The notes: generated from the letters alone by a model not told the origin. DNA of 64,000 nucleotides from Pseudomonadales bacterium (GCA_965263235.1 OZ253667.1:1026189-1090188), one strand, 5' to 3'. Counted from the first letter of the stretch, positions 2,652 to 47,624 are shown. Program-made: numbers and translations.

Positions 2652-2876
2652 AATACGATTTCCTCTTACATCAAATCGATCAGCTGGGGAGTCTAGTCGA
2701 TTCAAAAAAAACTGACAAATCGGTGGGGTGGTCAACGAACGATTTATTAAAGTACCTCGTAAAAAGCACAGTTTAATTTTGTCTGTGTAAGGGAATGATG
2801 CATTTGGTATCTTATACAATTCAGCTTTCGAGTTAGCTTTTGGTCTCGCGCTGTACGCGGGCAGTTGTGAATTATC

Positions 2877-4073
2877 ATGCAAGAGTTTGATGACATCCGT
2901 CCTTATAACGACGATGAAATTAATAGAACAATTTTGTCGCTCTGCGACAACCGCGAGTTTGTTGCCCTGATTGCAGGGTATCGATTCCCTACGCTTTCGC
3001 GCCTGGCTGTTGGCTCCTTCAAATTAATTTTAAATTTGATGGTAAAGAGAGGGGTGCTGTCGCGCTTTGGAGGAATTCATTGCGTTAACGACATGCAAGC
3101 GTTGCTCGAGGAGTATCTAGAGATAATGCTGGTGAGAACCTCCGATGGTTTTTCGGTGGCGGGACTCGAAAAGTTGGCACTGGACAGATCCCATTTATTC
3201 TTAAGTAATCACCGGGACATTACGCTGGACCCGGCTTTTACCAATCTGGCGCTGCATCGTGCAGGGGGGAGGACAGTTCGTATAGCGATTGGCGATAACT
3301 TGCTAAGCAAGCCCTGGGCGTCGGATTTAATGCGGATCAACAAAAGCTTTATAGTTAGACGTTCGATTACCAAGCCTAGAGAGCTGCTTAAGGCGCTAAC
3401 TAAGTTGTCGCGTTATATAAAATTTTCTCTGGATGAAGAGCGGGAAAGTGTCTGGATCGCACATAGAGAGGGTCGTGCAAAAGATGGGATTGATAAAACC
3501 GACACGGCCGTATTAAAAATGATATTTTTAGGACGACCTAAAGGCGTGGATTTTTCTGATTATTTAAGAGAATTGCGAGTGGTGCCCTGTAGTATCGCCT
3601 ATGAGTTTGACCCATGTATTGCGATGAAGGCGCGTGAACTGCGTTTGCGACAATCTGAGCAGGGTTACGAAAAATCTGAACATGAAGATTTAGAGAGCAT
3701 TGGGCAGGGTATTGCGGGTTATAAAGGGCGTGTTCATTTGGAATTTTCTCCGCTGGTCACTGAGAGTCTCGACAATGTTGAACAGTTTGAAGAAGCACTG
3801 GATAAAGCCATCATATCGGGGTACAAATTGTTTCCAAGTAATTTCATTGCTTACAAAAGAGTGTTTGGCGAGGAAAAATATAATGCCGCCGTTGAAAAGT
3901 TAAGAGAGCATGATTTGATCGACGGTATGGTGTTGAGCGAGCTGGGTAGCATGCAAAGTTTGCAAAAATTTGAAGCGCACTTGTCGCAAGTAGAAGCGAG
4001 CGATTTGGAGATTGCATTACAGTGTTATGCGAACGCTGTAGTTTCAAAGCTTGGCTTGCTTCAACAAAACTAG
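2877..4073 (+). CDS. Acyltransferase family protein (PlsC/LPLAT-like)
   Basis: The [13 protein letters not shown] block resembles the acyltransferase NHxxxxD motif region. The ORF is 398 aa. The family assignment was made by eye only. Confidence 0.55.
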
Positions 4074-4096
4074 TCGACTGAATAGATAAGCTATCG

Positions 4097-6298
4097 ATGG
4101 CGCTTACCGAAGAGTTAAAAGGAAATATTCAGCGATATTATAGGGAGTGGTTAGAAAGCAATGACTGTAAACCTCGGCGACCGCAGAGGGAAATGATTGC
4201 TCATATCGCTCGATGTTTGGCCGCAGTAGAAACTGATGAAGAAGGTTTACGTCTGGACTCCTTTCAAAATCAGTTATGCATTGTTCAAGCCGGTACGGGT
4301 ACGGGTAAAACGCTTGCGTATTCGATTGCTTCGATTGTTATCGCGCAGGCGCTTGATAAAAAAGTCGTTCTCTCAACGGCAACAGTTGCCCTGCAAGAGC
4401 AGCTACTTAATAAAGATCTTCCAAACCTGCTTGAATCAACTTCGTTAGATTTTTCTCTGGCGATTGCGAAAGGGCGTTCGCGCTACTTGTGTTTGAGTAA
4501 GCTAAGCTTGCGTTTAAAAGAATCAGAGGGGCTTGCTCCGCCGCAAGGTTTATTCCCTGACGAGCAGGGTGTGTTAAGTCAAAGCGCCAAAAAATCCATC
4601 TCGATCCTTTCGAAAGCAGTTGGATCAGGTGAGGCTTGTGGAGAGTTTGATTCGCTACCGGATGATTTTGATCACGAAAACTGGCATCTGGTCGCTGCTG
4701 ATAGAAACAGTTGTAGTGGTAAGCAGTGCTCCAATTATCGGGATTGCTATCTTTTTAACGCGAGAGACGAAGTTCGTAAGTCGGACGTGATTGTGGCAAA
4801 TCACGATTTGGTGCTGGCGGACTTAACTTTGGGTGGGGGGAACGTTTTACCGCCGCCGGAGGAGACGATTTACGTGTTTGATGAAGGGCATCATTTACCC
4901 GAGAAATCACGTAACCATTTAAGTGTTTCGTTTGGTCTACAGGCGCAGAGAAAGCAACTAGGGAATAGTCAAAAAATTTTCGCACACTTGCGAGATGTTA
5001 CTGGTATTTCTGCTGATCTTTTGTCTCGAGAAAAAACGATCAATCAACTGGACGAAACCCTTAAAACGATCTTGGCAGCAGTAGACGGCGTGGTCGGTAA
5101 AATAGTTGATGGTGGCGGCGGGTTGGATGGGATCGATTCTGGTGCCGAAGGTGTGTACCGGTTTGTGAACGGAATAGTTGAAGAAGATTTGCGGCAGCAT
5201 TTTGCAGACCTTCAAACCTGCTTTTTGGAAAAACATCGCCAGTTGAGTGCGATTGGTTCAGGTTTGGCGGATGCGATAAAGGATACAGGTGACGGTGATA
5301 CTGTTGTGCACGAGCGCAGTATTGCGAAGGGAAAATCTAATTCGAAAAAAGGCATTACGACAAGGGAGCGCCTGGAAGCTGCGCTTTCGTTAGTGAGTCA
5401 TTCACTCGCTCAGGTAGACAATGCGCTTGCTGTTTGTGATAGCTATGCTAATTGCAGTAAAGATGACCCGTACGCACGCTGGCTTTTAGAGAGCGACACT
5501 TCGGCCACCGCGAGAGCGGATGTTAGTGTTTTTTCAGTGCCGCTTTCTACTGCGAGTATTTTAAAAAGAATTCTGTGGAAGCGCTGTTTTTCGGCGGTAG
5601 TTACTTCAGCGACGCTCGCGCCGGCCGGAAACTTCAAGCATTTTTTTAGCAAGTTGGGTCATGGAGATGAGGTCCGCTCAATTCAGTTGTTAGGTGAGTT
5701 TAATTACGCTGATGCTGTTTTTTACGTTCCGCAAATGCAAAGCTCTGCGACTAATGCAATACTGCATACTGAAGAGCTTATCGAGTTAATTCCGAATTTA
5801 GTAGACAGTACAGGCGGGAGTCTGGTTTTGTTTTCATCGCGAAAGCAAATGATGGATGTTGCGCAAGAATTAGAAGCTGCGTTAGATGTTTTGGTTCAGG
5901 GAGAGCGCTCAAAACAGAAGTTGCTTGATCTTCACCGAGAGCGTGTGGATAAAGGGGGGCGAAGTGTGCTCTTTGGCCTGGCTAGTTTTGCCGAGGGCTT
6001 AGATTTGCCTGGTGACTATTGCAAAGAAGTTGTTATTGCGAAGCTTCCATTTTCTGTGCCGGATGGCCCTGTCGATAAAGCAATGGCAGAGTGGGTCGAG
6101 TCCAGGGGCGGGAACCCGTTTTATGATATTAGTTTACCAGATGCAGCCATACGCTTGATGCAGTCAAGCGGGAGGCTTTTGCGCAAAGATTCTGATGAGG
6201 GTCGTATAACGCTATTAGATAGGCGGATAGTGGCAAAAAGCTATGGAAAGCAGCTGCTCGCGGCACTCCCTCCATACCGGCTCGAAGTGGGGCGTTAA
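4097..6298 (+). CDS. dinG: ATP-dependent DNA helicase, DinG family
   Basis: It has Walker A AGTGTGKT and a DEGHH (DEAH-type) box. Cys residues between the motifs are consistent with an Fe-S domain. The C-terminal helicase motifs include SFAEGLD. The ORF is 733 aa. Confidence 0.85.
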   Translation: MALTEELKGNIQRYYREWLESNDCKPRRPQREMIAHIARCLAAVETDEEGLRLDSFQNQLCIVQAGTGTGKTLAYSIASIVIAQALDKKVVLSTATVALQEQLLNKDLPNLLESTSLDFSLAIAKGRSRYLCLSKLSLRLKESEGLAPPQGLFPDEQGVLSQSAKKSISILSKAVGSGEACGEFDSLPDDFDHENWHLVAADRNSCSGKQCSNYRDCYLFNARDEVRKSDVIVANHDLVLADLTLGGGNVLPPPEETIYVFDEGHHLPEKSRNHLSVSFGLQAQRKQLGNSQKIFAHLRDVTGISADLLSREKTINQLDETLKTILAAVDGVVGKIVDGGGGLDGIDSGAEGVYRFVNGIVEEDLRQHFADLQTCFLEKHRQLSAIGSGLADAIKDTGDGDTVVHERSIAKGKSNSKKGITTRERLEAALSLVSHSLAQVDNALAVCDSYANCSKDDPYARWLLESDTSATARADVSVFSVPLSTASILKRILWKRCFSAVVTSATLAPAGNFKHFFSKLGHGDEVRSIQLLGEFNYADAVFYVPQMQSSATNAILHTEELIELIPNLVDSTGGSLVLFSSRKQMMDVAQELEAALDVLVQGERSKQKLLDLHRERVDKGGRSVLFGLASFAEGLDLPGDYCKEVVIAKLPFSVPDGPVDKAMAEWVESRGGNPFYDISLPDAAIRLMQSSGRLLRKDSDEGRITLLDRRIVAKSYGKQLLAALPPYRLEVGR

Positions 6299-7287
6299 CC
6301 GCCGAGGTAAAGACATTCTGTGAGTAAATTTTACAAGTAGATTTAGGCCTACCGCTTGAACTACAAAAGGAATTGTGTAATTATCGACCACATAATCTGC
6401 CACGTTGTTTGTGGTGAGCATATTCTTTTCCGCGACGAACATGTGTCGTTGCGTGTTACGTTAGGTGGTCCTGGTCGGCCTTAGCGTGAGGGAAAAGGTG
6501 CATTTGGTAGTCGTGGCGTTATATTCGTTGCCTCGGTTGTTGCTTGCTCGTTAACTGTTCAATATTTGCAGCAGTGCGGGCGGCAGTTTGTTTGTACCTG
6601 TTTCGTTCCTCCTCACGTTCTTCTTTCCCAGGCTTTCCTAATTGATACGTGTTTTTTGCGTGGGTATCTACGCAAATTGGCGTGCTGAATAGCAGCGCAT
6701 CTCCCCCTGTTGTGATGCTCTCAGCGCAACCAATATTTTTCATGAGGGCTTGCCTACGAATTTTGAATAGATATCTCGTAAGTTAGCGTCAATAGTTTTC
6801 GAGGGTTGTCCTGGTAGACCCGCTCGTCTTTATTGGCACTGCTTCGACCTACAGAACGTTTGCTTTACTCATCGCGCAGGCTTTGCATTCTTAGCTGCTA
6901 CCGTGTGGGGTAAGACGTTTAATAACGCCGGTCGCATTAGCGGTCGATTGGCTGTGGGTTGTTTTGTGGTGTCATCATCTACCAGTACTCCTCTTTAGAT
7001 AAATTAAAGGTGTAGCTCTAGCCTGGTCTATCGCTAGGGCTCTAATGCCGTCGGCTGTTTTACTGCACAGCATTCGTATGAGTGTTGGTGATCAGTTGAG
7101 GCTTTTTTTATTTTTTAGATCTCAGGAGGTCTTATCGCGCACCCCTACTAGTTTAAAAAATGCTTATGAAGCGTGCTTTGGTTCTGTGCACGTTGCGTCT
7201 TAATCAAATCTCCATAACTAAGGCTTTTGGCTATGTGGCTGTGTAACGCTGCGAGGCCTGCGTTTTGGTGATTTAGCTTGACTATAT

Positions 7288-8018: not shown

Positions 8019-8460
8019 CGATTGCGTTTTTGCTTGGCTTGATTGGTGATGGCGTGCTCCGTTTTGAGTTTGTCACGACGTTTCCGCAACCAGCGGTTAA
8101 ATGACAGGATTAGGCGGTTTTGAGAGTAATGTAGTTATGTGGCAATGCGTTGCGGCGATGCGATTCCAGGGCTATTGTCTGGTCGCTATACGTTCAATTG
8201 TGCAAGAGTGATCGCACAAAAAAAGTACAAAAATGCTTGCTATATCCAAATGCGTTGTGTAGCATGTGATCCAGTCGCTAGACCTTACAGGATTTAGCGA
8301 TGACTTTTACAAGTTTAAAAAAGTAAAAACGCTGTAAAAAGCATTGTGAATCAAAGGTTTAGTAAAGCTTTAGGTTGACAAAAAGGTATTTTATTATAAC
8401 GGCTTGACTGACAGACTGTTGCTCAGCAAGAGGAGAACAATAAAGGCTGTACCTATTTAT

Positions 8461-8544
8461 CGATGTGAATCGACAATGCTTTCTTCGATGTGAATCGATG
8501 CTCAGGAAGAGGCTAATTATAATAATCGGTGTGAATCGACAATC
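8461..8544. repeat. Three direct copies of CG(A/G)TGTGAATCGA upstream of the first CTERM-protein gene
   Basis: cgatgtgaatcgacaat is at 8461, cgatgtgaatcgatgct at 8486 and cggtgtgaatcgacaat at 8527. Copies 1 and 3 share extended flanks. Confidence 0.6.
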
Positions 8545-8750
8545 AACAATTGGCTATTTAGCGGTACGGTCAAGTACAAAGCAATTCTTCACGGGGCAGA
8601 ATAAAATTGCTGCTGAGTGTGTTAGCTTGAGTTAAATAAAGACGTAACAATTAAGCGTCATACTTATTCCTCAGGTTAGTACTTGCAAGCGACTAGTTCG
8701 TTTGTCTTCTTAAAAAAGTAAAGTTTTTAAGCAAAATCGGAGTTTTAACG

Positions 8751-9467
8751 ATGAAAAAACAATTAAGCATTTTGGCGGGTTCAGTTCTGCTAGCTTCAGG
8801 TGCTCACGCAGCTACCGTTGGTGTTGGCGGAAATGCCGTAGCGGTTTTTGATACTGCTGGCGTAGGTACCTACATCATTGATACTGGTGTTACTGCCGAC
8901 GCTCTTGCAGCTGGTAATGGCTTCCAAATCGATGTGTCTGCAGCTTTAGCTGCACTTGGGTCAATTGATTCTTACGCAGTTCTAGGACTTACCACTCCTA
9001 CTGCAACAGGTTTATACAACTACGATTCAGGTTCTTACGTAGATGTTGGCGCTGGTGTTGTTTACGCTTCATCTACCGGTGGCGGTCCCGCAGTTAGTCA
9101 AAACAACACTGTTCTACAGACCGGTGGTGTAGCAACATACTTGAATAACGCTAATTTCGGCCTTAACGTAGATGGTTCTGGTGGAGATGCAAGTGGTTCT
9201 GCTGCAATACTCACTGGCTTTGGTGGCCTGTTGAACGCTGCCGGTGCATTATCCGGTCTGTTCGTACAGGATTCTGACTTTACGGGTTTAACTTCGTCGC
9301 CTGATGCGGTTACGATTCTGACTCCAACAGGCGCTATTGAAGGTGTTTATTTAGACGGTACAACTTTCAGTGCAACTGCTGTTGGTTCAACCGTGGTACC
9401 TGTGCCCGCTGCAGCCTGGCTATTTGGCTCGGCGCTTGTTGGTCTGGGCGTAGTTCGTCGCAGGTAG
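8751..9467 (+). CDS. Exported protein with a VPLPA/PEP-CTERM-like C-terminal sorting signal (paralog of 21108-21962)
   Basis: The signal peptide is MKKQLSILAGSVLLASGAHA/AT. The C-terminus VPVPAAAWLFGSALVGLGVVRRR has the motif, a hydrophobic helix and a basic tail. Confidence 0.8.
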   Translation: MKKQLSILAGSVLLASGAHAATVGVGGNAVAVFDTAGVGTYIIDTGVTADALAAGNGFQIDVSAALAALGSIDSYAVLGLTTPTATGLYNYDSGSYVDVGAGVVYASSTGGGPAVSQNNTVLQTGGVATYLNNANFGLNVDGSGGDASGSAAILTGFGGLLNAAGALSGLFVQDSDFTGLTSSPDAVTILTPTGAIEGVYLDGTTFSATAVGSTVVPVPAAAWLFGSALVGLGVVRRR

Positions 9468-37747: not shown

Positions 37748-38050
37748 GGGATGTAGCGTTCTCTTTGTACCCTTCACACAGACAGGCAGTAGCGCACTAA
37801 GTAGTGCGCCTAGAAAAGAAAGAGATATTAAGATTATTAGTTAGATAGTTTAGAGTGGGATGTAGCGCTCACTTTGTAGAGAGCGGTAGCGCACTAAGTG
37901 GTGCGCCTAGAAAAGAAAGAGATATTAAGATTATTAGTTAGATAGTTTAGAGTGGGATGTAGCGCTCACTTTGTAGAGAGCGGTAGCGCACTAAGTGGTG
38001 CGCCTAGAAAAGAAAGAGATATTAAGATTATTAGTTAGATAGTTTAGAAC
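37748..38050 (+). repeat. Three tandem units (109, 97, 97 bp), each starting with a degenerate copy of the tRNA-Pro 5' part
   Basis: The units start GGGATGTAGCG at 37748, 37857 and 37954. Units 2 and 3 are identical. Each contains GGTAGCGCAC and an AT-rich spacer. The true tRNA follows at 38050. Confidence 0.9.
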
Positions 38051-38126
38051 GGGATGTAGCGCAGTCTGGTAGCGCACCACACTGGGGGTGTGGTGGTCGT
38101 CGGTTCAAATCCGGCCATCCCGACCA
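38050..38126 (+). tRNA. tRNA-Pro (anticodon GGG)
   Basis: CGGGATGTAGCGCAGTCTGGTAGCGCACCACACTGGGGGTGTGGTGGTCGTCGGTTCAAATCCGGCCATCCCGACCA. All four stems pair, and the anticodon loop is CTGGGGG. Confidence 0.85.
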
Positions 38127-38154
38127 ATTTATACTTATAAATCAAAATGTTAAA

Positions 38155-38180
38155 AGCCTCGCAAATGCGGGCTTTTTATT
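38155..38180 (+). terminator. Terminator after tRNA-Pro
   Basis: AGCCTCGCaaatGCGGGCTTTTTATTT (one bulged base). Confidence 0.6.
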
Positions 38181-38217: not shown

Positions 38218-39219
38218 CTAAGTGTGACTAAGTTGATCAATGGGGCTGGTCACACCTTTGCCGCCCCGGTTGACTACATGAGTGTAGATTTCGGTGGTGC
38301 TGATGTCGCTGTGTCCTAACAACTCTTGAATGGTGCGCAAATCATAGCCCGACTCCAATAGGTGAGTCGCAAAGCTATGCCTGAAACTGTGAATGCGTGG
38401 TAGCTTGTGAATCTTGGCTTCTTGCACTGCGCGTCTTACCTGGCGGCTCAGTGTGGTCGGGTGCATATGGTGGCGGCGCTTCACGCCACTGCGAGGGTCT
38501 TTGCCGATACTGCTTGAGGGAAATAGAAACTGCCAGGCCGTCTCGTACGGCGCTCGAGGGCTTTTGCGTGCGAGTGCATCAGGCAGGCAAACTTCGCCAT
38601 ACCCGTCGCGAATATCTTGGTCGTGGAGCAGCTTAACGCGCGCTACTTGCGCTTTCAATTCGGGGATTAATTTTTGCGGCAGCATGGTCGCGCGGTCCTT
38701 ATTTCCTTTGCCATTGCGGACGATAATATTATTGGAGCCAAAATCGACATCCTTGATGCGCAGTGAGAGAAGCTCTGCGAGCCTCAAGCCAGTGCCGTAA
38801 AGTAATTCGACCTGTAGCCGGTAGACGCCATTAAGGCCGTTGATAATAGCCGCTATCTCATCCCGACTATATATCACGGGAAGCCGCTTGGGCGCTCTCG
38901 CGCCTTGATAGCCAAGTTCACCCACCTCAATTCCTAAAAAGCGCTTGTACACGTATACGAGCGCATTGAGTGCGGTGCGTTGTGTATTGACCGAGCAAAA
39001 GCGTTGATTGGATAGATAACTTAAAAAATTTTCGATTTCAGTGGGGCCTAATGATTTGGGGTGTTGCTTACCGTGAAAGTTAATAAAGCGGCGGATCCAG
39101 TGAATATAGGTTTGCTCGGTGCGGTACGCGAGCCCCTTTTGCCGCATGTGCAGGCGTAGCTGATCGAGAAAGCGTGGCGATTGCGGTGGAATGGTGGTGC
39201 GGATTTTTATTTGTTCCAT
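38218..39219 (-). CDS. intI: Integron integrase
   Basis: It is a tyrosine recombinase with the R..HxxR..Y boxes (TGLRLAELLSLR, HSFRHSFATHLL, TEIYTHV). It also has the IntI-specific insertion LPDALARKSPRAPYETAWQFLFPSS. The start was set at MEQIKIR. Confidence 0.9.
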   Translation of the reverse strand: MEQIKIRTTIPPQSPRFLDQLRLHMRQKGLAYRTEQTYIHWIRRFINFHGKQHPKSLGPTEIENFLSYLSNQRFCSVNTQRTALNALVYVYKRFLGIEVGELGYQGARAPKRLPVIYSRDEIAAIINGLNGVYRLQVELLYGTGLRLAELLSLRIKDVDFGSNNIIVRNGKGNKDRATMLPQKLIPELKAQVARVKLLHDQDIRDGYGEVCLPDALARKSPRAPYETAWQFLFPSSSIGKDPRSGVKRRHHMHPTTLSRQVRRAVQEAKIHKLPRIHSFRHSFATHLLESGYDLRTIQELLGHSDISTTEIYTHVVNRGGKGVTSPIDQLSHT

Positions 39220-39479
39220 GGGATGCACTCGTATACCTGTATGTATATACAGTATCAATTTTAAGTGCACTCTGTCAAACTTCAGGTGATCAATGGATAG
39301 GTGTTCACTATTTCCAGGGTTGCAGGGCTAAGGTATTGAAAAATAAGATGGTGGTATCGTGTACAACAGCCATTGATTTTCCCCGCCTGGCAGATTCCTG
39401 CTCGCTTTAACCTTTTTTGATATCAATCATTCATTGCTTAACCTACTGAACAATAGACTCTTTTTTTGATGTCTAAGTA

Positions 39480-39545
39480 TGTTTAAATTTGGATACACAG
39501 CATGGTGGATATGAGCCACTTGCTATTGAATAAACTGTTAGCCAT
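39480..39545 (+). other. attI region with the recombination point in GTTAGCC (G39537/T39538)
   Basis: GTTAGCCAT (39537-39545) is the exact reverse complement of ATGGCTAAC (40036-44), which ends the first cassette. The left extent of attI is not determined. Confidence 0.6.
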
Positions 39546-39560
39546 ATTAAGGATACAATA

Positions 39561-40043
39561 ATGAATGAAGTTAGAATCCCTTATAAACCAAACAAAATTC
39601 TATTTATATTAGCAATCGGGTTTTTTGGTGCCTGTGCCGGATTTATGGGAAATATTGCAATAACAAACGATAGAGGTTTGGTGCTTAACCGAATTTTTGA
39701 ATTCTCCACACAAGGAGCTTCTATTTTTTACTGGGTTATTACAGTAATAGCTCTAGCATTTGTTTTAGTTGGAATTATTGCCCTTATAAAAAGCTTTACC
39801 TCAAAAAGAGAGATAATTATCTCCGATACTTCTATCACGTCCCCTAAAAGTGGTTTTAGCAAACTAGATATTACCGTCAATTTTTCAGACGTTACGGATG
39901 TCACGATACAAACTGTACAAAAAACCAAAATACTTAACATCGACCACTTAGATGGTAGACTCTCAATTCCAAATAGCATGTTGCCAAATAAACAAGCTTT
40001 TGAAGAGTTAGTTTCACATATTCAAGTTAAATTAAATGGCTAA
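39561..40043 (+). CDS. Cassette 1: small membrane protein (two TM helices + soluble C-terminal domain)
   Basis: The hydrophobic segments are ILFILAIGFFGACAGFMGNIAI and IFYWVITVIALAFVLVGIIALI. The ORF is 160 aa. Confidence 0.65.
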   Translation: MNEVRIPYKPNKILFILAIGFFGACAGFMGNIAITNDRGLVLNRIFEFSTQGASIFYWVITVIALAFVLVGIIALIKSFTSKREIIISDTSITSPKSGFSKLDITVNFSDVTDVTIQTVQKTKILNIDHLDGRLSIPNSMLPNKQAFEELVSHIQVKLNG

Positions 40044-40057
40044 CAAGTGACTATGGT
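40036..40057 (+). other. 5' (R''/L'') part of the attC of cassette 1, interrupted by an IS
   Basis: ATGGCTAACAAG has the same R''-AAG organisation as the other attC sites (GCATAACAAG, CCTAGCAAG, GCTAGCAAG). Confidence 0.55.
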
Positions 40058-40072
40058 GTCAAACTCTAATTA

Positions 40073-40459
<387 letters not shown>

Positions 40460-40481
40460 TTAACGAAGAGGAGATCTCAAC

Positions 40482-40748
40482 ATGAAGAAGAAACGATTTA
40501 CCGAAGAACAGATTATTGGTGCGCTGAAGGCACACGAAGCTGGCGAGAAGGTCGCTGATATTTGTCGACGAATCGGCGTGGCGCAGGGTACGTTCTACAA
40601 TTGGCGAGCCAAATTTGGTGGGATGGAAGTGAACGAAGCTAGGCGGCTGCGTGAATTGGAATCAGAGAACACCAAGCTCAAAAAGCTGTTAGCCGATAAG
40701 CTCCTTGAAGTTGAAGCGATGAAGGATGTGTTGTCAAAAAAGTGGTGA
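40482..40748 (+). CDS. IS3-family transposase OrfA (HTH)
   Basis: MKKKRFTEEQIIGALKAHEAG..GTFYNWRAKFGG, with a leucine-zipper-like tail. It ends just after A AAA AAG (40736-40742). Confidence 0.9.
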   Translation: MKKKRFTEEQIIGALKAHEAGEKVADICRRIGVAQGTFYNWRAKFGGMEVNEARRLRELESENTKLKKLLADKLLEVEAMKDVLSKKW

Positions 40749-41560
40749 AACCTGCGAGCAAGAAGTTGGCGATCTCGCATATGAAGACAACACATCGTGT
40801 GAGTGAACGAACAGCTTGTCAGCTCGTAGGTTTGAGCCGAAGCGGTTATCGCTATCAAGCACAACCCAAAGGTGATGAATCACTGACGAAAAGGCTCAGT
40901 GAGCTGGCCACGCAATATCCTCGCTACGGCTACCTGATGTTGTACAGTCTACTCAAACAGGAAGGGTTAGTCGTTAACAAGAAACGCACCTATCGCTTGT
41001 ATACAGCAATGGGCTTGCAGGTTCGCACGAAGAAACGTAAGAAGCTCACAAGACCACGACAACCGCTAGCAGTCCCGATTGGCAAAGATATTCGTTGGTC
41101 GATGGACTTTGTCTCCGATCAATTGAGTAATGGCAGACGCTTTCGAGTGCTCAATGTGGTCGATGACCATACACGCGAGCTGGTCGGCCAGCTCACAGCG
41201 TTTTCGATATCCGGCCAGCAAGTCGCGGGCTTCTTAAATCAACTGTTAGCAACCCGTAACAAGCCCGATCAAGTGATCTGCGATAACGGCACGGAGTTTA
41301 CGAGTAAGGCGATGTTCTTTTGGCAGAAGGATGCAGGCATAAAGCTTGGCTTTATTCAGCCAGGCAAACCGACACAGAATGCGTTTGTAGAAAGTTTAAA
41401 TGGCAAGTTCCGAAACGAATGTTTAAACCAGCATTGGTTCCGCAGCATTGATGAAGCGAGACACATCATTAACGACTGGCGAGAGCACTACAATCATAAA
41501 AGGCCGCATAGCGCATTGAACTATATGACGCCAGTGGCCTTTGCGAATCGAGCAGCATAG
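40742..41560 (+). CDS. IS3-family transposase OrfB (DDE), expressed by a -1 frameshift from OrfA
   Basis: It lies in the -1 frame relative to orfA. The rve-type core is WSMDFV..VVDDHTRE..DNGTEFTS..ESLNGKFRNECL. Confidence 0.9.
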   Translation: MVKPASKKLAISHMKTTHRVSERTACQLVGLSRSGYRYQAQPKGDESLTKRLSELATQYPRYGYLMLYSLLKQEGLVVNKKRTYRLYTAMGLQVRTKKRKKLTRPRQPLAVPIGKDIRWSMDFVSDQLSNGRRFRVLNVVDDHTRELVGQLTAFSISGQQVAGFLNQLLATRNKPDQVICDNGTEFTSKAMFFWQKDAGIKLGFIQPGKPTQNAFVESLNGKFRNECLNQHWFRSIDEARHIINDWREHYNHKRPHSALNYMTPVAFANRAA

Positions 41561-41607
41561 AATGAAAATCTCATCCAAGCTGTGGTGTTAATCGTGGGGA
41601 AAGGTCA

Positions 41608-42218
41608 GCAAGGACGTTGCCCACGCCTTTAGCGCTTAATAGCAGATCACGCTTTTGTCGCCACTCAGCGACACTGTTAACCAATTTGTCGAGTTGTTTA
41701 TCGATGGTGAGCAGTTCTTTTTTGATGGCTTTGAGAATGTTTTGAATGGGGTTGTGCACAGCTTTTGGCATGCGTTTTAAACGATTCTTTTGCATGGTGC
41801 TCATTTCGAGGCATTGACTGCGCACGACGAGCAAATCGCTAATCGCTCTTAATTTCTCGGGTTTTATTGAGGAAAGCCTGGGCTTCATCGTCTCGCCATA
41901 GTGAGCGATGTCCTGCGCATCGAGCTTGTCTGTTTTTGCCATGCGGCCTGCTGATTTAGCAAAGTTGCGCACGTTGCCTGGATTACAGATGACGATGGGC
42001 AGCCCCGCTTTGTGAGCGGCGATGACGAAGTCGAGTTCTAATCGTCCGGTGGACTCGATCAATACACGAGTGGGTTTGAGAGGTTGAAGTTGTTTAACGG
42101 CGTCTTTGATGCCGTCTTTATCATTGGAGGCACTGAAAAACTGGCCAGTGGGTCTCACGTAAATATCGAGTTGTTTTGTGCTGGTGTCGATACCGACATT
42201 GATCTCTTGCGTATTCAT
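41608..42218 (-). pseudogene. IS110-family transposase, N-terminal fragment
   Basis: MNTQEINVGIDTSTKQLDIYV..VLIESTGRLE.. matches the DEDD N-terminal domain. It is truncated by the IS3 insertion. Confidence 0.85.
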
Positions 42219-42489
42219 GGGATAAGCTATCTCCGCCTTGCTATTCGGGCTCGAGGCCCACATGACTATTCGAGTTATGCCTGGTGAGTGTTTGTCACGT
42301 TCACACTAGCGGGTTTAATACACCTGGCCAGCATCGAACTATGACAAACAAGGCCTTGGGTGGCCGCCCAAGGTGGGCCTCAATTTACCCGTTAGTGGAA
42401 AGGATTAAAATAATGAATATAGAGAGAATTGAACCATACAAGGTCATCAAGCCGGACAGTTTTTCCGTTGCTTCTTTTGTGTTTACCCG

Positions 42490-42545
42490 CTACGCTAGCA
42501 CAAAAACGCAACTACAAAACTGCCGCTTATAACGGCGTTAGCTTT
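42490..42545 (+). other. attC 3' part with R' GTTAGCT preceding cassette 42538-43952 (left limit unclear)
   Basis: GTTAGCTTT (42537-45) is complementary to AAAGCTAGC (43879-87) at the end of the following cassette. Confidence 0.55.
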
Positions 42546-43952
42546 CAAAATAATGGATTGACCATCAATGTCTGAACAAGAAATTGAATACGAAGAAGAG
42601 GACTGGGCTGACGAGCCAGTTGATCCGCAGCAACTGGAAGAAGCTCAAAATGAACTTAGAGCACGTTGTGATGCGGCGGGAATAACTGTAGAAGAAACGG
42701 AAGGGATGGAAGAAGGCGACACAGCCTTGGAATTGTCATTTCCATGCGGGAGAAACAAAAGAACACACATCCTTTGGGATTACGATGATATTAAGAGAAT
42801 ATTAGCCGTACCTTTTGAAAAATATACATTTATTGATGGATATAGGGCTATTTGCTCTTACTCAGATAACACCATCGAGGCGCAGATAAGGCCGATGGGT
42901 CCTTTTAGTCCTCGCTTGGCCATTCGTCGACTTTTTAGCGATAGATTTGATGAAGATGATTTACGAGCAGAAAACTACAGCATCGATTTGACTCCAGATA
43001 AAGGCGTAGATGGTCCACAAGTCTCTGTTGGCCCTTCAACTCAAGATTTTCGGGCAATAAACCGCGGACCATCTCTCGGTAATCTCAGTTTAAAACTAGT
43101 GAATACTGGTCTATCACATCATGATCAATCTCGCTCTTTGCTGGAAAAAATATCCAATTCATTGTTCTTTCAAATTGAGCTGCTCGCAGGACTCCCGCTC
43201 GGATTGTTCAGGCAAAGACGGCACCCAAGGCCTATTCGCAGAAAAAATCAGAGGGCATCGATAGAAGACCTGCAATACCCAAAAAATGAATACGATGAAG
43301 CGCCAATCTCACTGTATTGGTATGGCATCAGCGCCATGGGAATGCCCCTCCTACAATTTCTCGCTTTTTACCAAGTGATCGAGTTCTATTTCCCGACCTA
43401 TTTTCAAGCTGAAGCACGACGGAAAATTCGAGCAATACTAAAAAACCCAACATTTCGAAACGATAGAGATGCCGACCTAGGCAAGATACTAAGCGCAATA
43501 CAACTCGGCAAGTCAGGCAGTTTAGGTGATGAAAGGTCGCAATTGCGGGCCACAATAGCGGAATGTGTAGATCCTGATTCCTTAAGGTCATTCTTTTCGG
43601 ATACGGAGGAGAGAACAGGTTTCTTTTCATCAAAAACCAAGGGGATAACAGATCACAAGATTCCGCTTGCTAATCCCAATGTCGACCTTAGGAACGATGT
43701 TGCTGATAGGATTTACGACATTAGGTGCAAGATCGTACATACCAAATCTGATAGCAGAAATGGAGAAATCGAGCTTCTTCTACCATTCTCAAAAGAGGCG
43801 GAACAGCTGTATCACGATATAGAACTAGTGCAATATATCGCGCAGCAAGTACTCATATCAGCAAGTGCACCACTGTAAAAAGCTAGCAAGTACATTAAAT
43901 ACGCTCCCTTTGGTCGCCGGACCTCGCTACCGCTCGGCCGTTTATGTAAGCG
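42538..43952 (+). mobile_element. Integron gene cassette (one ORF)
   Basis: It is bounded by G/TTAGCTTT and by an attC ending G/TTAGGTGC. The start and the R'' end are complementary (8 of 9). Confidence 0.75.
42568..43878 (+). CDS. Cassette protein, 436 aa, acidic N-terminus; the C-terminal region carries a HEPN-like Rx4H motif
   Basis: DRIYDIRCKIVHTK (R-x4-H) lies in a predicted helical C-terminal domain. No other motif was recognised. Confidence 0.6.
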   Translation: MSEQEIEYEEEDWADEPVDPQQLEEAQNELRARCDAAGITVEETEGMEEGDTALELSFPCGRNKRTHILWDYDDIKRILAVPFEKYTFIDGYRAICSYSDNTIEAQIRPMGPFSPRLAIRRLFSDRFDEDDLRAENYSIDLTPDKGVDGPQVSVGPSTQDFRAINRGPSLGNLSLKLVNTGLSHHDQSRSLLEKISNSLFFQIELLAGLPLGLFRQRRHPRPIRRKNQRASIEDLQYPKNEYDEAPISLYWYGISAMGMPLLQFLAFYQVIEFYFPTYFQAEARRKIRAILKNPTFRNDRDADLGKILSAIQLGKSGSLGDERSQLRATIAECVDPDSLRSFFSDTEERTGFFSSKTKGITDHKIPLANPNVDLRNDVADRIYDIRCKIVHTKSDSRNGEIELLLPFSKEAEQLYHDIELVQYIAQQVLISASAPL

Positions 43953-43960
43953 TTAGGTGC
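43879..43960 (+). other. attC site
   Basis: R'' AAAGCTAGC-AAG; L'' TACATTAAATACG pairs with L' CCGTTTATGTA; R' GTTAGGTGC. Confidence 0.75.
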
Positions 43961-43979
43961 AACTCACTCGAATCTCATC

Positions 43980-45272
43980 ATGAAAGTTACTATCTACACC
44001 CTGTGGAGGTCATTCGCCATTTTTACGGTACTCCTGTTCATCGTCATGGGGTATTGCGCTGTTCTTGTGGCTAAACCGTTTATCAGTGCAAAAATTAAAA
44101 ACATCTATATATCTAGGAGCTTAAAGGCTTTGGTAACGTTCCTTGGCCCTCCTTACATCAAGATAATTCAGATACTGAGTACAAGGGCAGATATATTCTC
44201 TGATGAATTTATAAGAATATGTGGCCAATTGAGAGTAAATGTACCTGGCCCTTCTTTTTCAAGAATAAAGAGTAGCATACCTAGTTCGCTTGCTGATGCT
44301 ATACGTACTAAGCAAATTAGCATCGAAGAAGAGCCAATTGCTGGAGGGAGTGTTGCGGTAGTCTATAAGGGCATCGATATAGGCACCTCGAATCCTTTAG
44401 CAATCAAAATCATCCGACCAAACGCAAAACTACTTATTACAACTGATATTAAGATTCTAGTTTTTTTCTCTTTCTATTTGAGGCTAATACCGTGGCTCAA
44501 GCCGATTCCCATGCAGTCCGCGTTGAGGTTCGTTGGGAATGCATTGATTGAGCAAACAAATTTAGAGCTAGAGCGCAGAAATCTAAATAGATTTACGGAG
44601 CTTACGACCGAGAACAATAAAATCGTGTTTCCTATTGCTTGGCCAGACTATTCAAATGAAAACACATTGGTAATGGGTTACTTAAGTAACTTTAACGAAG
44701 AGTGGCTATACAATATGACTGCTGAACAAGGTTCAGTCATTTCTGACTCCTTAGTTCATATGCTATTTAATATGGTCTTTGTCGAGGGGTTTATACATTC
44801 AGATTTACACCCAGGTAATATTGGCGTAGATCAACGGGGATTCATAAGAATAGTAGATACAGGTTTGGTTGCACAACTAAACTCAATGGATAGGAAGCAG
44901 TTTGCAAGATTCTTTTTTGGGATGGTAAGCAACAATGGACTAATGAGCGCGAAAGTTTTAAATGAAACAGCAGAAAAATCGCTAAAAATATTTGATAAAC
45001 AAATGTTCGATATAGAAGTTTCGAGTATCATTGCCAAGTATTCTGGCTTGAGTGCTGCGGATTATGATGTTGCCCTTTTCGTGTCAGAAATATTTCAAGT
45101 GCAAAGAAAACATGGGTTAGTGGCTACACCAACATTTCTTACAGTAATTCTTGCTTTTGTGTCTCTTGAGGGAATAATAAAAATAATTTGCCCAGCTTAT
45201 GATTTCCAAGAAAAGGCGAAACAGTATATTTTTAGGTATTCCCAAGCAGTTGGGCTATTTGAAGCAACGTAG
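43980..45272 (+). CDS. ABC1/UbiB (AarF) family atypical protein kinase with an N-terminal TM segment
   Basis: FLGPPYIKIIQILSTRADIFSDEFI..LRVNVP..EEEPIAGGSVAVVYKG..AIKIIRP..FIHSDLHPGNIGV is the classic ABC1 domain pattern. Confidence 0.8.
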   Translation: MKVTIYTLWRSFAIFTVLLFIVMGYCAVLVAKPFISAKIKNIYISRSLKALVTFLGPPYIKIIQILSTRADIFSDEFIRICGQLRVNVPGPSFSRIKSSIPSSLADAIRTKQISIEEEPIAGGSVAVVYKGIDIGTSNPLAIKIIRPNAKLLITTDIKILVFFSFYLRLIPWLKPIPMQSALRFVGNALIEQTNLELERRNLNRFTELTTENNKIVFPIAWPDYSNENTLVMGYLSNFNEEWLYNMTAEQGSVISDSLVHMLFNMVFVEGFIHSDLHPGNIGVDQRGFIRIVDTGLVAQLNSMDRKQFARFFFGMVSNNGLMSAKVLNETAEKSLKIFDKQMFDIEVSSIIAKYSGLSAADYDVALFVSEIFQVQRKHGLVATPTFLTVILAFVSLEGIIKIICPAYDFQEKAKQYIFRYSQAVGLFEAT

Positions 45273-45313
45273 GTTCTTCTCCAGATCCTACCAATATTTC
45301 TCAGGAGTTTAAA

Positions 45314-46105
45314 ATGGCAAAGTTTGAAGACTCGATTTTTTTCAATGAGCTTAATCGGTTTGTGGGTTCTGGAGGAGAACTAGTATTAAAGAAATCACAG
45401 AAAGAAGATGGAGATACCAAAATCGATGTCGGAGATATTCTAATTGGTATCGGTGTGACCCACCTTGTAGAAAGTCTTTCTAGGCCGCCAGGGTTGGATT
45501 CCTTTCGTTCTTTCGACGTAAATTCCTTGGCATATGACAGAAAAATGGCTGCGCGCGCTTTTAGAGTAGTCGCGAAAGAGCAAACTGACGAAGGGTTTGA
45601 TTTTCGATTCGAGCCATTGTCTCCAAACGAATATAGCGAAGCGTTGTCTGAGGTATCCGAGGGCACCGTTAATATTGACCCAAAGACTATACCAGACGGT
45701 ACAGTAATCCTGAGCTTTACATCAGAAAAACCTGAATACACGCTCAAATCAAATGAATCTTCACCGAGAGCTAATTGGGAAGCACTAGCAAAGGGGGAGC
45801 GTCATTGGAATGTAGGAATTGGCTCTGAAGATGATTTTTGGGCAGCGAGTTTCCCGTCAGATGAAATGGAGTTTCTGAAAGAGTTTTCGGCAGCAGCAAA
45901 ATTGGGTCGAATTCGATTTGGCTTATCAATGCTCAAAGGAAGTGTTGGAGCGATAAAACTAGAAAAAGTTGAGACTGAACATCCGACTGGAAGGATTACA
46001 AAACATGATTTTTGCTTAAATGGCAACGCTGCTGGTACGAAGAACTTAGATTCTCCATTTCCTATAGGACTGCGAACCGAAATCACTTTTTTTCCAGTCG
46101 AATAA
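45314..46105 (+). CDS. Hypothetical protein (263 aa), second gene of the two-gene cassette
   Basis: The ORF has an AGGAG Shine-Dalgarno site 8 nt upstream. No recognisable motif was found. Confidence 0.6.
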   Translation: MAKFEDSIFFNELNRFVGSGGELVLKKSQKEDGDTKIDVGDILIGIGVTHLVESLSRPPGLDSFRSFDVNSLAYDRKMAARAFRVVAKEQTDEGFDFRFEPLSPNEYSEALSEVSEGTVNIDPKTIPDGTVILSFTSEKPEYTLKSNESSPRANWEALAKGERHWNVGIGSEDDFWAASFPSDEMEFLKEFSAAAKLGRIRFGLSMLKGSVGAIKLEKVETEHPTGRITKHDFCLNGNAAGTKNLDSPFPIGLRTEITFFPVE

Positions 46106-46108
46106 ATT

Positions 46109-46206
46109 GCACCTAGCAAGGCAAATGCACTCGGACTGCCAAAAGCTGCGCCGCTCGTTCCTCGCTCTGCAGCTTTTGGCAGCCGGTGATTTGCGGCGTT
46201 ATGCAT
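46109..46206 (+). other. attC site
   Basis: R'' GCACCTAGC-AAG; L'' GCAAATGC pairs with L' GATTTGC; the internal inverted repeat is CTGCCAAAAGCTGC/GCAGCTTTTGGCAG; R' GTTATGCAT. Confidence 0.8.
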
Positions 46207-46675
46207 CAGGAAAAATATGAGTATTAGCCCAATTTTGGAGAAAGACTTCTACCACGACGGTAGAGGCCCAGAGCTTCAAAAGGTACAGTGGAAATCGAAT
46301 GGGGTAGTACTTGTTGGTTTTGAGTATTTCAATCCGGACGATGAATACACTCCGGAAAATTTAAAACATTTGGCTCTCGACAGTGTTGAGGCATACAGCA
46401 TGTCCTCGGAGGAAGTACACGGTAATATTCTGGCAGGAGGTGACAATAAGGCAGCTATCTTTGAAGTCAAAAACTCAGAGTGGCTAGCCTCATTTAATCA
46501 ATATCACCTATCAGAGTGTAGGCACTACCAAATCATGTTTTACGATGAAATCTATGATGTAATCTGCAAGAGCATTAAAGCAGGTTCAGGTCGGCTAAAT
46601 GCATAACAAGGCGCTGTTATCGCAGCCTTCGGCTGCTGGGACGCACCACTGCGTGGCGCGCCCTAAAGCTTGGCG
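46199..46675 (+). mobile_element. Integron gene cassette (one ORF)
   Basis: GTTATGCAT (46198-46206; the cassette begins at T46199) is the perfect complement of ATGCATAAC (46599-46607). Confidence 0.8.
46217..46606 (+). CDS. Cassette hypothetical protein (129 aa)
   Basis: The ORF fills the cassette, and its stop codon lies inside R''. Confidence 0.6.
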   Translation: MSISPILEKDFYHDGRGPELQKVQWKSNGVVLVGFEYFNPDDEYTPENLKHLALDSVEAYSMSSEEVHGNILAGGDNKAAIFEVKNSEWLASFNQYHLSECRHYQIMFYDEIYDVICKSIKAGSGRLNA

Positions 46676-46684
46676 TTAATCCGC
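46599..46684 (+). other. attC site (last recognisable one)
   Basis: R'' ATGCATAAC-AAG, a GC-rich imperfect palindrome (GCAGCCTTCGGCTGC) and R' GTTAATCCGC. Confidence 0.65.
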
Positions 46685-46979
46685 TTTTTCTGCTTTTCTT
46701 TTTTTGATTTATTACTTCGCTTTCTGGCCTTAAAATTTTCTCCGTACAGTTATTGACAGAACTCCAGGTGGGCGCTTCCGCCTGGAGGTGCTGTCGCTTG
46801 CGCTCGGCCGATTCCGACGCCATCGGATGATTCGTTGCAAACAACGTCTTTACTTTATCCTTGAGTTTTACCGTCCACTCTATTGGTCGGGATATAACAG
46901 CTTGGGTTTTAAACCAAATCCCTTTAATGGCCTTTATCGCTTCGCCGTATAGATTGCGTTTTTCTCTTTCCAGAAACAT
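46617..46979 (-). CDS. Doubtful ORF / possible gene remnant at the distal end of the cassette array
   Basis: The 120-aa ORF has its last ~20 codons running through the attC at 46599-46684. No motif was recognised. Confidence 0.25.
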   Translation of the reverse strand: MFLEREKRNLYGEAIKAIKGIWFKTQAVISRPIEWTVKLKDKVKTLFATNHPMASESAERKRQHLQAEAPTWSSVNNCTEKILRPESEVINQKKKSRKSGLTPSFRARHAVVRPSSRRLR

Positions 46980-47054: not shown

Positions 47055-47624
47055 ATGAGTCTCCAATTGAGAGCCTACCCTAATACATCATCACAAGTGA
47101 GCAAGCCATTAAAAGAAGGCGTTATCGACGCAACCAGAAAATGGCTTAGCGATTTTGTTATTGAGCATAACCTCTGTCCGTTCGCCAGGCGTGAGTTGGC
47201 TAACGAAACGATTCGTTTTGTGGAAAGTGACGCAAGCGATATTGAAAGGCTGCTTGGCCAGTTGCATCAGGAGTTGATGTTGCTTGAGCAAGATGCGACA
47301 GTCGAAACGACCCTGCTAATTCATCCCAATGTTCTTAGTGACTTCCAGGACTATCTGGACTTTCTTGATATCGCCAATGGCTTATTGATTGAACTTGATT
47401 TGGAAGGCATTTTTCAAGTGGCTAGCTTCCACCCGGACTATCAATTCGCCGATACCAAATTCTCCGATCCAGAGAACCTTACCAACCGTTCGCCTTATCC
47501 CATGTTGCATTTGCTTAGAGAAGCCAGTGTTGAAAAAGCAGTTGCCAGCCACCCCGACCCCGAAAGTATTCCCGAACGGAATATCGCCTTGATGAAGCAG
47601 CTTTTTGTAGAAGGGAAATTGTAG
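47055..47624 (+). CDS. DUF1415 family protein
   Basis: NLCPFARRE..TTLLIHPNVLSDFQDYLDFLD..FQVASFHPDYQFA..NRSPYPMLHLLREASVEKAV is the pattern I remember for DUF1415. Confidence 0.75.
   Translation: MSLQLRAYPNTSSQVSKPLKEGVIDATRKWLSDFVIEHNLCPFARRELANETIRFVESDASDIERLLGQLHQELMLLEQDATVETTLLIHPNVLSDFQDYLDFLDIANGLLIELDLEGIFQVASFHPDYQFADTKFSDPENLTNRSPYPMLHLLREASVEKAVASHPDPESIPERNIALMKQLFVEGKL

Follow-up and report, generated by a model that had tools for sequence, protein, structure and literature searches.

In the established model of integron function, DNA damage would inactivate LexA and lead to expression of the integrase gene, intI, whose product would bind the folded bottom strand of an attC site, inserting cassettes by attC x attI recombination and excising them by attC x attC recombination. 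Because the cut falls between G and TT, each cassette would be opened by the final bases of its own R' and closed by the R'' complementary to them. Some insertion sequences (IS) are known to settle in attC sites. Members of the IS1111-attC group (ISKpn4, ISPst6 and ISPa25) carry a DEDD transposase and are guided, by an RNA that their non-coding region supplies, to a set point close to the R'' end of attC, where they insert in a single orientation; their transposases have 330-350 aa and their non-coding region lies downstream of the transposase gene (PMC11187229). The insertion point is about 11 nt before GTTAG, inside L'', e.g. between CGGCTTGAA and CGAATTGTTAG (PMC13604230), and the elements have long subterminal inverted repeats (PMC11187229, PMC13604230). 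Here we analysed a stretch of 64,000 nt from a Pseudomonadales bacterium (OZ253667.1:1026189-1090188; the window hereafter), in which the locus at 38218-46681 is very probably a resident chromosomal integron, with an intact intI probably under SOS control, an attI and four cassettes. The host is a roughly 3-Mb marine gammaproteobacterium related to the Cellvibrionales, and the integron itself is one more small chromosomal integron of a well-known type, from a poorly sampled marine lineage. An initial annotation of the sequence had recognized the integron, while overlooking that attC1 is split by nested IS110-type and IS3-family elements (40048-42442) and that attC4 is degenerate. The IS110-type element belongs to a lineage that appears to home specifically to attC sites and whose layout and insertion point differ from those of the IS1111-attC group.

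The order of the cassettes, and the attI from which they extend, can be read as follows:

39491-39543, plus strand: attI, a conserved block ending in TTGAATAAACTG and followed by TTAGCC
39538-42537, plus strand: cassette 1, about 605 bp without the IS, with an open reading frame (ORF) at 39561-40043
42538-43952, plus strand: cassette 2, with an ORF at 42568-43878
43953-46198, plus strand: cassette 3, with ORFs at 43980-45272 and 45314-46105
46199-46675, plus strand: cassette 4, with an ORF at 46217-46606

The evidence that carries these boundaries is the complementarity between each cassette start and the R'' at the end of the same cassette, the circular-permutation signature of attC-bounded cassettes that the initial annotation had put forward. 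All eight 9-mers were found where it had placed them (starts and R'' at 39537/40036, 42537/43879, 43952/46109 and 46198/46599, in order on the plus strand), two pairs being perfect reverse complements and two having one mismatch, where the R'' ends in AGC rather than AAC. Over the five variable positions, i.e. those outside the GTTA/TAAC consensus, every R'' agrees with its own cassette start at 5/5 and with the other starts, including the next one downstream, at only 0-3/5. Own-cassette complementarity thus totals 20/20 informative positions, with a probability of ~4e-9 even after allowing for the purine/pyrimidine constraints of GTTRRRY. A lone 9-mer match with one mismatch within 3 kb has a probability of ~0.3 and is insignificant by itself; the signal is the ordered chain together with the fixed position. 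Every R'' overlaps the stop codon of its cassette's last ORF or comes directly after it. AAG follows the R'' in 4/4, again as first described. The attI crossover was set between G39537 and T39538, the start of cassette 1, because the conserved attI block ends at GTTA there: in seven of eight aligned sequences (the window and seven relatives) the block ends in TTGAATAAACTGTTA (AAACTGTTA), and similarity among the aligned attI regions stops right after GTTA. At the other side the array ends at 46681, with no further site found by the attC model described below, and a DUF1415 gene follows at 47055, in keeping with the earlier estimate of 46.7-47.0 kb for the array end.

Upstream of attI, and divergent from the array, lie the integrase gene and its control region:

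38218-39222, minus strand: intI, integron integrase of 334 aa, read from the ATG at 39222
39251-39278, minus strand: candidate intI promoter, TTGACA-16-GATACT (10/12 in a consensus scan, a prediction only)
39237-39252, no strand assigned: LexA (SOS) box CTGTATGTATATACAG, overlapping the -10 of the intI promoter

The protein scores 417 bits against the 'integron integrase' hidden Markov model TIGR02249 (cutoff 265), as compared with 129-135 bits against the XerC and XerD models, whose cutoffs are about 330; XerA is also far below its cutoff. In Pfam it matches Phage_integrase and Phage_int_SAM_4, and it aligns over its full length to IntIA of Vibrio cholerae (PDB 2A3V; E 1e-91). This tyrosine recombinase has the extra domain between patches II and III that marks the IntI subfamily: the integron-specific insertion pointed out earlier, ALARKSPRAPYETAWQFLFPSS, is present and stands opposite ALKEKYPNAPYEFRWHYLFPSF of IntIA, with the Trp of ETAWQF conserved in the alignment. 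The catalytic residues are all in place in the motifs LRL, GKGNKDR, HSFRHSFATH and EIYTHV (R, K, HxxR, H, Y). The open frame extends beyond the ATG as far as a GTG (39270) situated upstream of the predicted promoter. The LexA-type box is perfect and is the sole match in the window, where none is expected by chance. For comparison we gathered 80 loci with IntI relatives of at most 73% identity (Zhongshania, Porticoccus, Spongiibacter, Microbulbifer and several metagenome-assembled genomes, or MAGs); most of them have CTGT-N8-ACAG 25-45 nt upstream of intI. Since the box lies at the promoter and SOS control is the established model for integron integrases, it is likely that this intI is under SOS control as well.

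A covariance model, R1, was built from 28 attC sites of these relatives, with 17 base pairs and no sequence from the window, and was run on the whole window with filters off. It reports exactly four sites at E <=1e-3, all on the plus strand at the cassette ends (23.7-52.1 bits, best E 5e-11), and its next-best match has an E of 0.16. Of the two refuting conditions named in the initial annotation, an attC model that fails to score the sites and an IntI profile that groups the protein with XerC/D, neither was borne out in the forms run here. The model is also specific in other genomes: of 102 matches in 17 relatives' loci, 101 are upstream of intI and on the cassette strand, and in 8 loci bearing the IS discussed below all 50 matches are on the cassette strand. 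The relatives' consensus is YYTAAC-AAG-L''...L'-GGC-GTTA, of which AAG and GGC were not demanded by the heuristic that picked the training sites, and both are found in the window too. The sites are:

40038-40047, plus strand: 5' part of attC1, R'' GGCTAAC and spacer AAG, read from the sequence
42443-42543, plus strand: 3' part of attC1, with L'', branched centre, L', GGC and R' GTTAGCT, found by R1
43882-43958, plus strand: attC2, R1 26.0 bits, E 2.6e-4, 14/17 pairs standard
46112-46204, plus strand: attC3, R1 36.7 bits, 17/17 pairs standard
46602-46681, plus strand: attC4, R1 23.7 bits, E 1e-3, 6/17 pairs non-standard

In order from attC1 to attC4 the sites measure about 110, 77, 93 and 80 nt, and their stems are unrelated. 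The initial annotation had seen an imperfect palindrome after each AAG and had suggested folding the bottom strands. Both the palindrome and the fold hold for attC3, which is canonical, with a long stem, three bulged bases on the L'' arm and a bottom strand of -27.9 kcal/mol (z = -4.2). At attC1 the stem resumes only 2.4 kb later, at 42443, behind the IS. When the site is rebuilt by deleting 40048-42442, GGCTAACAAG joins GTCATCAAGCCGG, and the bottom strand folds canonically at -22.5 kcal/mol: the R boxes pair, the L stem is bulged and the tip branches; the rebuilt site resembles the attC sites of one of the relatives' loci, L004. The R1 match for attC1 (42434-42541, 52.1 bits) is to the 3' part of the split site, and its first 9 nt are the IS end (CCATACAAG), which mimics R''-AAG. 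For attC2 and attC4 the claimed palindromes fared less well, as weighed below. Our first heuristic for attC sites, based on R''/R' pairing inside the array, was rejected as it missed every real site, because the R' within an array belongs to the next cassette; by a second stem heuristic, only attC3 stands out on stem score alone. An Rfam scan of 36.5-48 kb gave the tRNA only, Rfam having no attC family.

A putative 120-aa ORF on the minus strand, 46617-46979, overlaps attC4 by 65 nt from the far side and has no family match. The N-terminal 80 residues of its predicted product weakly match a stretch just downstream of intI in a Candidatus Reddybacter MAG (L016, 2392-2626; 43-45% identity, E 2e-6 in a small database).

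The insertion in attC1 consists of two elements, one within the other:

40048-42442, minus strand: IS110-type element in attC1, 2,395 bp including the nested IS3 element, 1,195 bp when intact
40408-41607, plus strand: IS3-family element in the IS110 transposase gene, matching NF033516 at 243 bits on orfB

The outer element splits attC1 between the AAG spacer, which ends at 40047, and L'', which resumes at 42443; its ends can be placed to within 5 nt only, as (C)TTGT is common to the element and its target. The transposase gene is in two pieces (42218 to 41612 and 40407 to 40073), both of which match NF033542, PF01548 and PF02371, and is preceded by a 5' non-coding region of about 224 nt (42219-42442) and followed by a 3' end of 25 nt. 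Once rejoined, the transposase has 313 aa and is 100% identical to metagenome proteins (P0001) and 99-100% identical to three proteins of one NCBI contig; the host genome presumably holds intact copies of the element elsewhere. Set against an intact 1,195-bp copy (L081), the copy in the window has gained 1,204 bp, has lost 4 bp of its non-coding region and carries 2 single-nucleotide polymorphisms. The gain is made up of the 1,200-bp IS3 element and its GCAA target duplication (40404-40407 and 41608-41611); the IS3 element has inverted repeats TGACC...GGTCA and an orfA (40482-40748) and orfB (40742-41560) with an A6G slippery site. As for the deletion, at 42303-42312 the four nucleotides AACA are gone from the otherwise invariant TAACAAGT, so that the window copy reads GCTAGTG where the other copies read GCTAACAAGTG. 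Because these 4 nt were lost inside TAACAAG, the candidate target guide of the element, in addition to the breakage of the transposase gene by the IS3 insertion, the window copy is predicted to be doubly dead.

One candidate attC within this region, at 42338-42412 (ACAAAC-AAG...GTTAGTG), with a 137-bp cassette at 42401-42537, was rejected, as it is part of the 5' non-coding region of the IS; the stretch is conserved in all the IS copies and folds no better than shuffled sequence. The non-coding region itself matches no known RNA family in Rfam.

The position of the IS110-type element can be compared across 12 copies from five or more genomes: that of the window, ten from an ENA metagenome, several Microbulbifer genomes and a Pseudoteredinibacter MAG (L081-L090; 84-100% protein identity), and one from plasmid pPBSW1 of Pseudoalteromonas sp. 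Bsw20308 (L095; 52% protein identity). Besides the window copy they are located as follows:

L081, 3773-4967: IS110-type copy, the intact one used for comparison
L082, 610-1804: IS110-type copy
L083-L090, about 2772-3966: IS110-type copies
L095, about 8180-9395: IS110-type copy of Pseudoalteromonas

All 12/12 copies sit at the same attC position in the same orientation, with the target CTTGTTA, and all lie within arrays of R1 matches, the transposase gene being antiparallel to the cassettes. On the top strand the order is YTAAC-AA(G), the IS, then L''; the elements run from CTTGTATGG to CCATAGTC(A/T), and CTTGTTA follows. In three copies the C of the left junction is replaced by T or G, so the crossover was placed inside TTGT and the C assigned to the right end of the IS. 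Where intact, the element measures 1,195 bp, of which about 225-228 nt precede the transposase gene and 24-25 nt follow it. This long upstream non-coding region and short 3' end, together with a DEDD transposase (PF01548 and PF02371), place the element in the IS110 type, and the transposase is homologous to the IS621 and ISCro4 recombinases (E 1e-22). The siting of these copies suggests that the element homes specifically to attC sites, and that its landing in attC1 would be no accident.

The non-coding region of the IS also hints at how the target could be chosen. Its CCTTGTT has the same sequence as the target read across the junction. Further 3' lies TAACAAG, complementary to the target; this heptamer is invariant in the non-coding region of five copies of 84-100% protein identity and is found in the 52%-identical copy as well. 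A hairpin in this region shows a compensatory G/C exchange. Moreover, a non-coding AATAGTCA matches the right end of the IS and becomes AATAGTCT in the Pseudoalteromonas copy, whose right end is CCATAGTCT. IS621 and ISEc21 provide the analogy (PMC11208160, PMC11187229) from which we infer that targeting of the element may be RNA-guided. What tempers this reading is that the assignment of the guides comes from sequence matches, one compensatory change and one covarying base. Taken together, it can be hypothesized that the element represents an undescribed IS110-type clade, of the IS492/IS621 branch, which homes to the R''-spacer motif TAACAAG/CTTGTTA in the attC sites of marine gammaproteobacterial chromosomal integrons, an ability that would have evolved apart from that of the IS1111-attC group and would rely on two guide segments of a 5' non-coding RNA; we advance this composite proposal tentatively, with slightly more doubt than belief. 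In the literature searched, we found no description of an IS110-type element as attC-specific. IS492 of Pseudoalteromonas atlantica has the target CTTGTTA and a CTTGT repeat, and the classical IS492 target may simply be an attC R'' motif. The attC-sited IS offers a natural and testable case of bridge/seekRNA targeting of a structured recombination site outside IS1111, and the finding suggests that attC-targeting IS elements regularly disable cassette mobility in marine integrons.

Two further observations concern the loci with copies of this IS. In Microbulbifer sp. PSTR4-B (L083, CP174285.1), the IS-bearing attC array adjoins genes with phage tail, capsid-decoration and protease domains, i.e. 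the cassette array abuts a prophage-like region. In the Pseudoalteromonas locus (L095), two larger IS110-family transposase genes, with annotated coding sequences of 1,269 and 1,155 bp, are found at 3417-6476 of the same attC array, which several IS110 lineages thus appear to populate.

What remains of the integron's function depends on the state of its sites. With attC1 split by a broken IS110-type element and attC4 devoid of L''/L' pairing, the array is, judging by its sequence, partly crippled. Because attC1 is split and attC4 degenerate, it is plausible that only cassette 3 is flanked by two usable attC sites, while cassettes 1 and 2 could presumably leave only as a block, via attI x attC2. 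Any promoter near attI is probably cut off from cassettes 2-4 by the 2.4 kb of inserted antisense sequence, which would block read-through. Recombination may still take place, and a number of points count against the reading as a whole. The stem of attC2 is short, AT-rich and weak, and the unconstrained minimum-energy fold misses it. Although attC4 keeps R''-AAG and GGC-GTTAATC, its L'' and L' are unpaired and it forms local hairpins only, so we regard it as probably degenerate; attC2 and attC4 are marginal and make up half of the intact-looking sites. The R1 training sites had been picked by a stem heuristic requiring YYYA[AG]C...GTT[AG] and a stem, and the model formalizes the consensus of the clade rather than providing a blind test. 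Finally, no cassette promoter (Pc) was found at 38900-39560, where the best sigma-70 match on the plus strand is 8/12.

The state of attC2 and attC4 and the lack of a Pc, along with the presence of four cassettes only, would be expected if the locus were a fossil, an integron by descent whose array is frozen, whose IntI no longer moves cassettes and whose attC sites are decaying relics. The splitting of attC1 by a dead IS that was itself struck by a second IS fits this as well, since the insertion would then be old. However, intI is full length with all its catalytic motifs, the LexA box is intact and conserved, and attC3 is perfect; in addition, the cassettes are wholly unlike those of the relatives apart from one weak kinase match, which argues for turnover on an evolutionary time scale. 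We therefore consider the fossil unlikely, without setting it aside, and retain a resident integron with a partly crippled array.

Its residence in the chromosome, which the initial annotation had also proposed, is indicated by the surroundings. On the intI side are pheT, ihfA, a MerR-like gene and tRNA-Pro(GGG), and on the array side the DUF1415 gene, a nitrilase-like gene and an iron-type alcohol dehydrogenase gene. In a MAG whose IntI is 66% identical (L029), the integron adjoins the same tRNA-Pro/merR/ihfA/pheT/pheS block; this shared flank was seen in that one MAG, and integron flanks differ in the other relatives. The cassettes have a GC content of 0.38-0.44, compared to 0.47-0.53 in the flanks. 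The 3' end of tRNA-Pro is not repeated anywhere in the 64-kb window, in which there are also no mobility genes besides the two IS. These housekeeping flanks, the L029 locus, the lower GC of the cassettes and the lack of a tRNA repeat or mobility genes all speak for a resident chromosomal integron. The locus could instead be a mobile integron, or a genomic island recently delivered beside tRNA-Pro, given that intI lies 92 nt from the 3' end of that tRNA gene, that a small array and dissimilar attC sites are traits of mobile integrons too, that the GC of the cassettes is below that of the flanks, and that a 21-nt imperfect inverted repeat brackets the unit. That the tRNA 3' end has no direct repeat in the window led us to reject a tRNA-linked island, and no transposition, conjugation or phage genes are adjacent. 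The relative with the 66%-identical IntI has its integron at the same locus, and conservation of the attI and LexA regions extends to chromosomal relatives. Recent delivery on a mobile unit is thus quite improbable. As for an ordinary XerC/D-like recombinase beside genes with palindromes of the repetitive extragenic palindromic (REP) kind between them, which would leave no integron at all, it finds virtually no credence: Xer models do match IntI and two of four sites have poor stems, but the Xer scores are lower and far below cutoffs where TIGR02249 passes, the insertion aligns with IntIA, own-cassette complementarity is 20/20, and the attC model matches are specific in strand and position.

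Two repeats in the flanks were noted on the side. The inverted repeat just mentioned is AT-rich, with arms at 38137-38157 and 46692-46712, the one 61 nt past the intI stop and the other 10 nt past attC4; 17/21 positions match, with an 11-nt exact core, ATAAATCAAAA, and it could be due to chance or to a terminator-related A/T tract. Directly upstream of tRNA-Pro(GGG), and extending into the tRNA gene, a 97-nt unit is repeated 2.8 times in tandem with 98% identity, at 37789-38062 (also 37748-37769). Each unit has a degenerate tRNA 5' part (GGGATGTAGCGC...GGTAGCGCAC), and the repeat may be what is left of an array of tRNA genes, or may stem from duplication of a promoter region.

The cargo was earlier described as mostly unrecognizable, which stands for the second product of cassette 3 (263 aa) and that of cassette 4 (129 aa), neither of which has a family, but not for the product of cassette 2 or for the kinase of cassette 3. 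Cassette 1 encodes a predicted membrane protein of 160 aa with a weak match to the STM3941 family (28.8 bits, below cutoff). The product of cassette 2 has 436 aa with a DzbB/MauJ-like C-terminal domain: PADLOC reports a partial DzbB match over residues 251-398 (E 9e-13), Pfam a MauJ match of 25.7 bits, below the cutoff of 28, and there are 938 homologues in Proteobacteria and beyond, many of which align along their whole length at about 50% identity. Membership of cassette 2 in a Dazbog system was rejected, as such a system needs DzbA and DzbB, and DzbA has no match among the cassette proteins. A homologue of 69% identity in Pseudomonas sp. KB-10 (L091, 4904-6387 of QYYB01000003.1) is bounded by attC sites, scoring 51.9 bits before it and 18.7 bits after it with R1, and lies in a run of same-strand genes; no integrase is found among the called genes of that 11-kb locus, which could be an attC cluster without an integrase. 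Since the KB-10 homologue is flanked by attC sites, a gene of the 436-aa family is a cassette in two distant genera. The first ORF of cassette 3 encodes an ABC1/UbiB-type kinase of 430 aa (PF03109 ABC1, 118.8 bits; TIGR01982, 196.6 bits, below cutoff), and R1 found no attC between it and the ORF of its 263-aa partner. Of the five cassette proteins, four are in the protein collection, each alone in its 90% identity cluster, and the kinase is not in the collection; among the 90 loci gathered for comparison, no homologue of a cassette protein was found except for a weak match to the kinase (23% identity). A defence function is plausible for cassettes 2 and 3, and the DzbB/MauJ-like family represents mobile cargo worth testing for phage defence.

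Compared to described integrons, the locus resembles the V. cholerae chromosomal integron (IntIA/IntI4) and other sedentary ones in the integron-specific insertion, the divergence of intI from the array, the attI ending in GTTA, the LexA box at the intI promoter, the chromosomal position and a cargo mostly of unknown function. It differs in that it has four cassettes rather than tens to hundreds, attC sites of 77 to about 110 nt that vary in sequence rather than uniform V. cholerae repeats (VCR), and no Pc identified. Large arrays are taken to have more than about 20 cassettes with highly similar attC; with four dissimilar sites, the locus therefore fits poorly with this large, uniform type. 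Its Cellvibrionales relatives (Zhongshania, Spongiibacter, Porticoccus and Microbulbifer; L001-L080) are closer, with IntI 61-73% identical and the attC consensus YYTAAC-AAG...GGC-GTTA, the attI block and the LexA box in common; it shares no cassette with them beyond the weak 23% kinase match, and Microbulbifer arrays are much larger and more uniform. With class 1 mobile integrons it has in common a short array, dissimilar attC sites and IS inside attC sites. It lacks the Tn402/tni genes, 3' conserved segment and resistance genes of that class, its flanks being housekeeping genes; the equivalog model NF011946 gives 344 bits, below its cutoff of 435, and neither carriage by a transposon or plasmid nor transposition modules in the flanks, as in mobile integrons of classes 1-5, were found.

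The IS110-type element, for its part, shares with the IS1111-attC group the insertion into attC in one orientation and at a fixed point. Unlike those elements, it has its non-coding region, of ~225 nt, upstream of the gene, a 3' end of 25 nt and a transposase of 313 aa, and it inserts within (C)TTGT/TA, directly at the R''/spacer; as both layout and insertion point differ, it does not belong to that group. Its long upstream and short downstream regions are those of the IS110 type and not of IS1111 (PMC11187229, PMC11208160). The short 313-aa transposase, the long upstream non-coding region and the homology to IS621 and ISCro4 are shared with the IS492/IS621 branch, and the match to the target bottom strand lies 5' of the match to the top strand, in the order of IS110-type seekRNAs (PMC11187229). 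Unlike IS621, which targets REP sequences, the element described here sits in attC.

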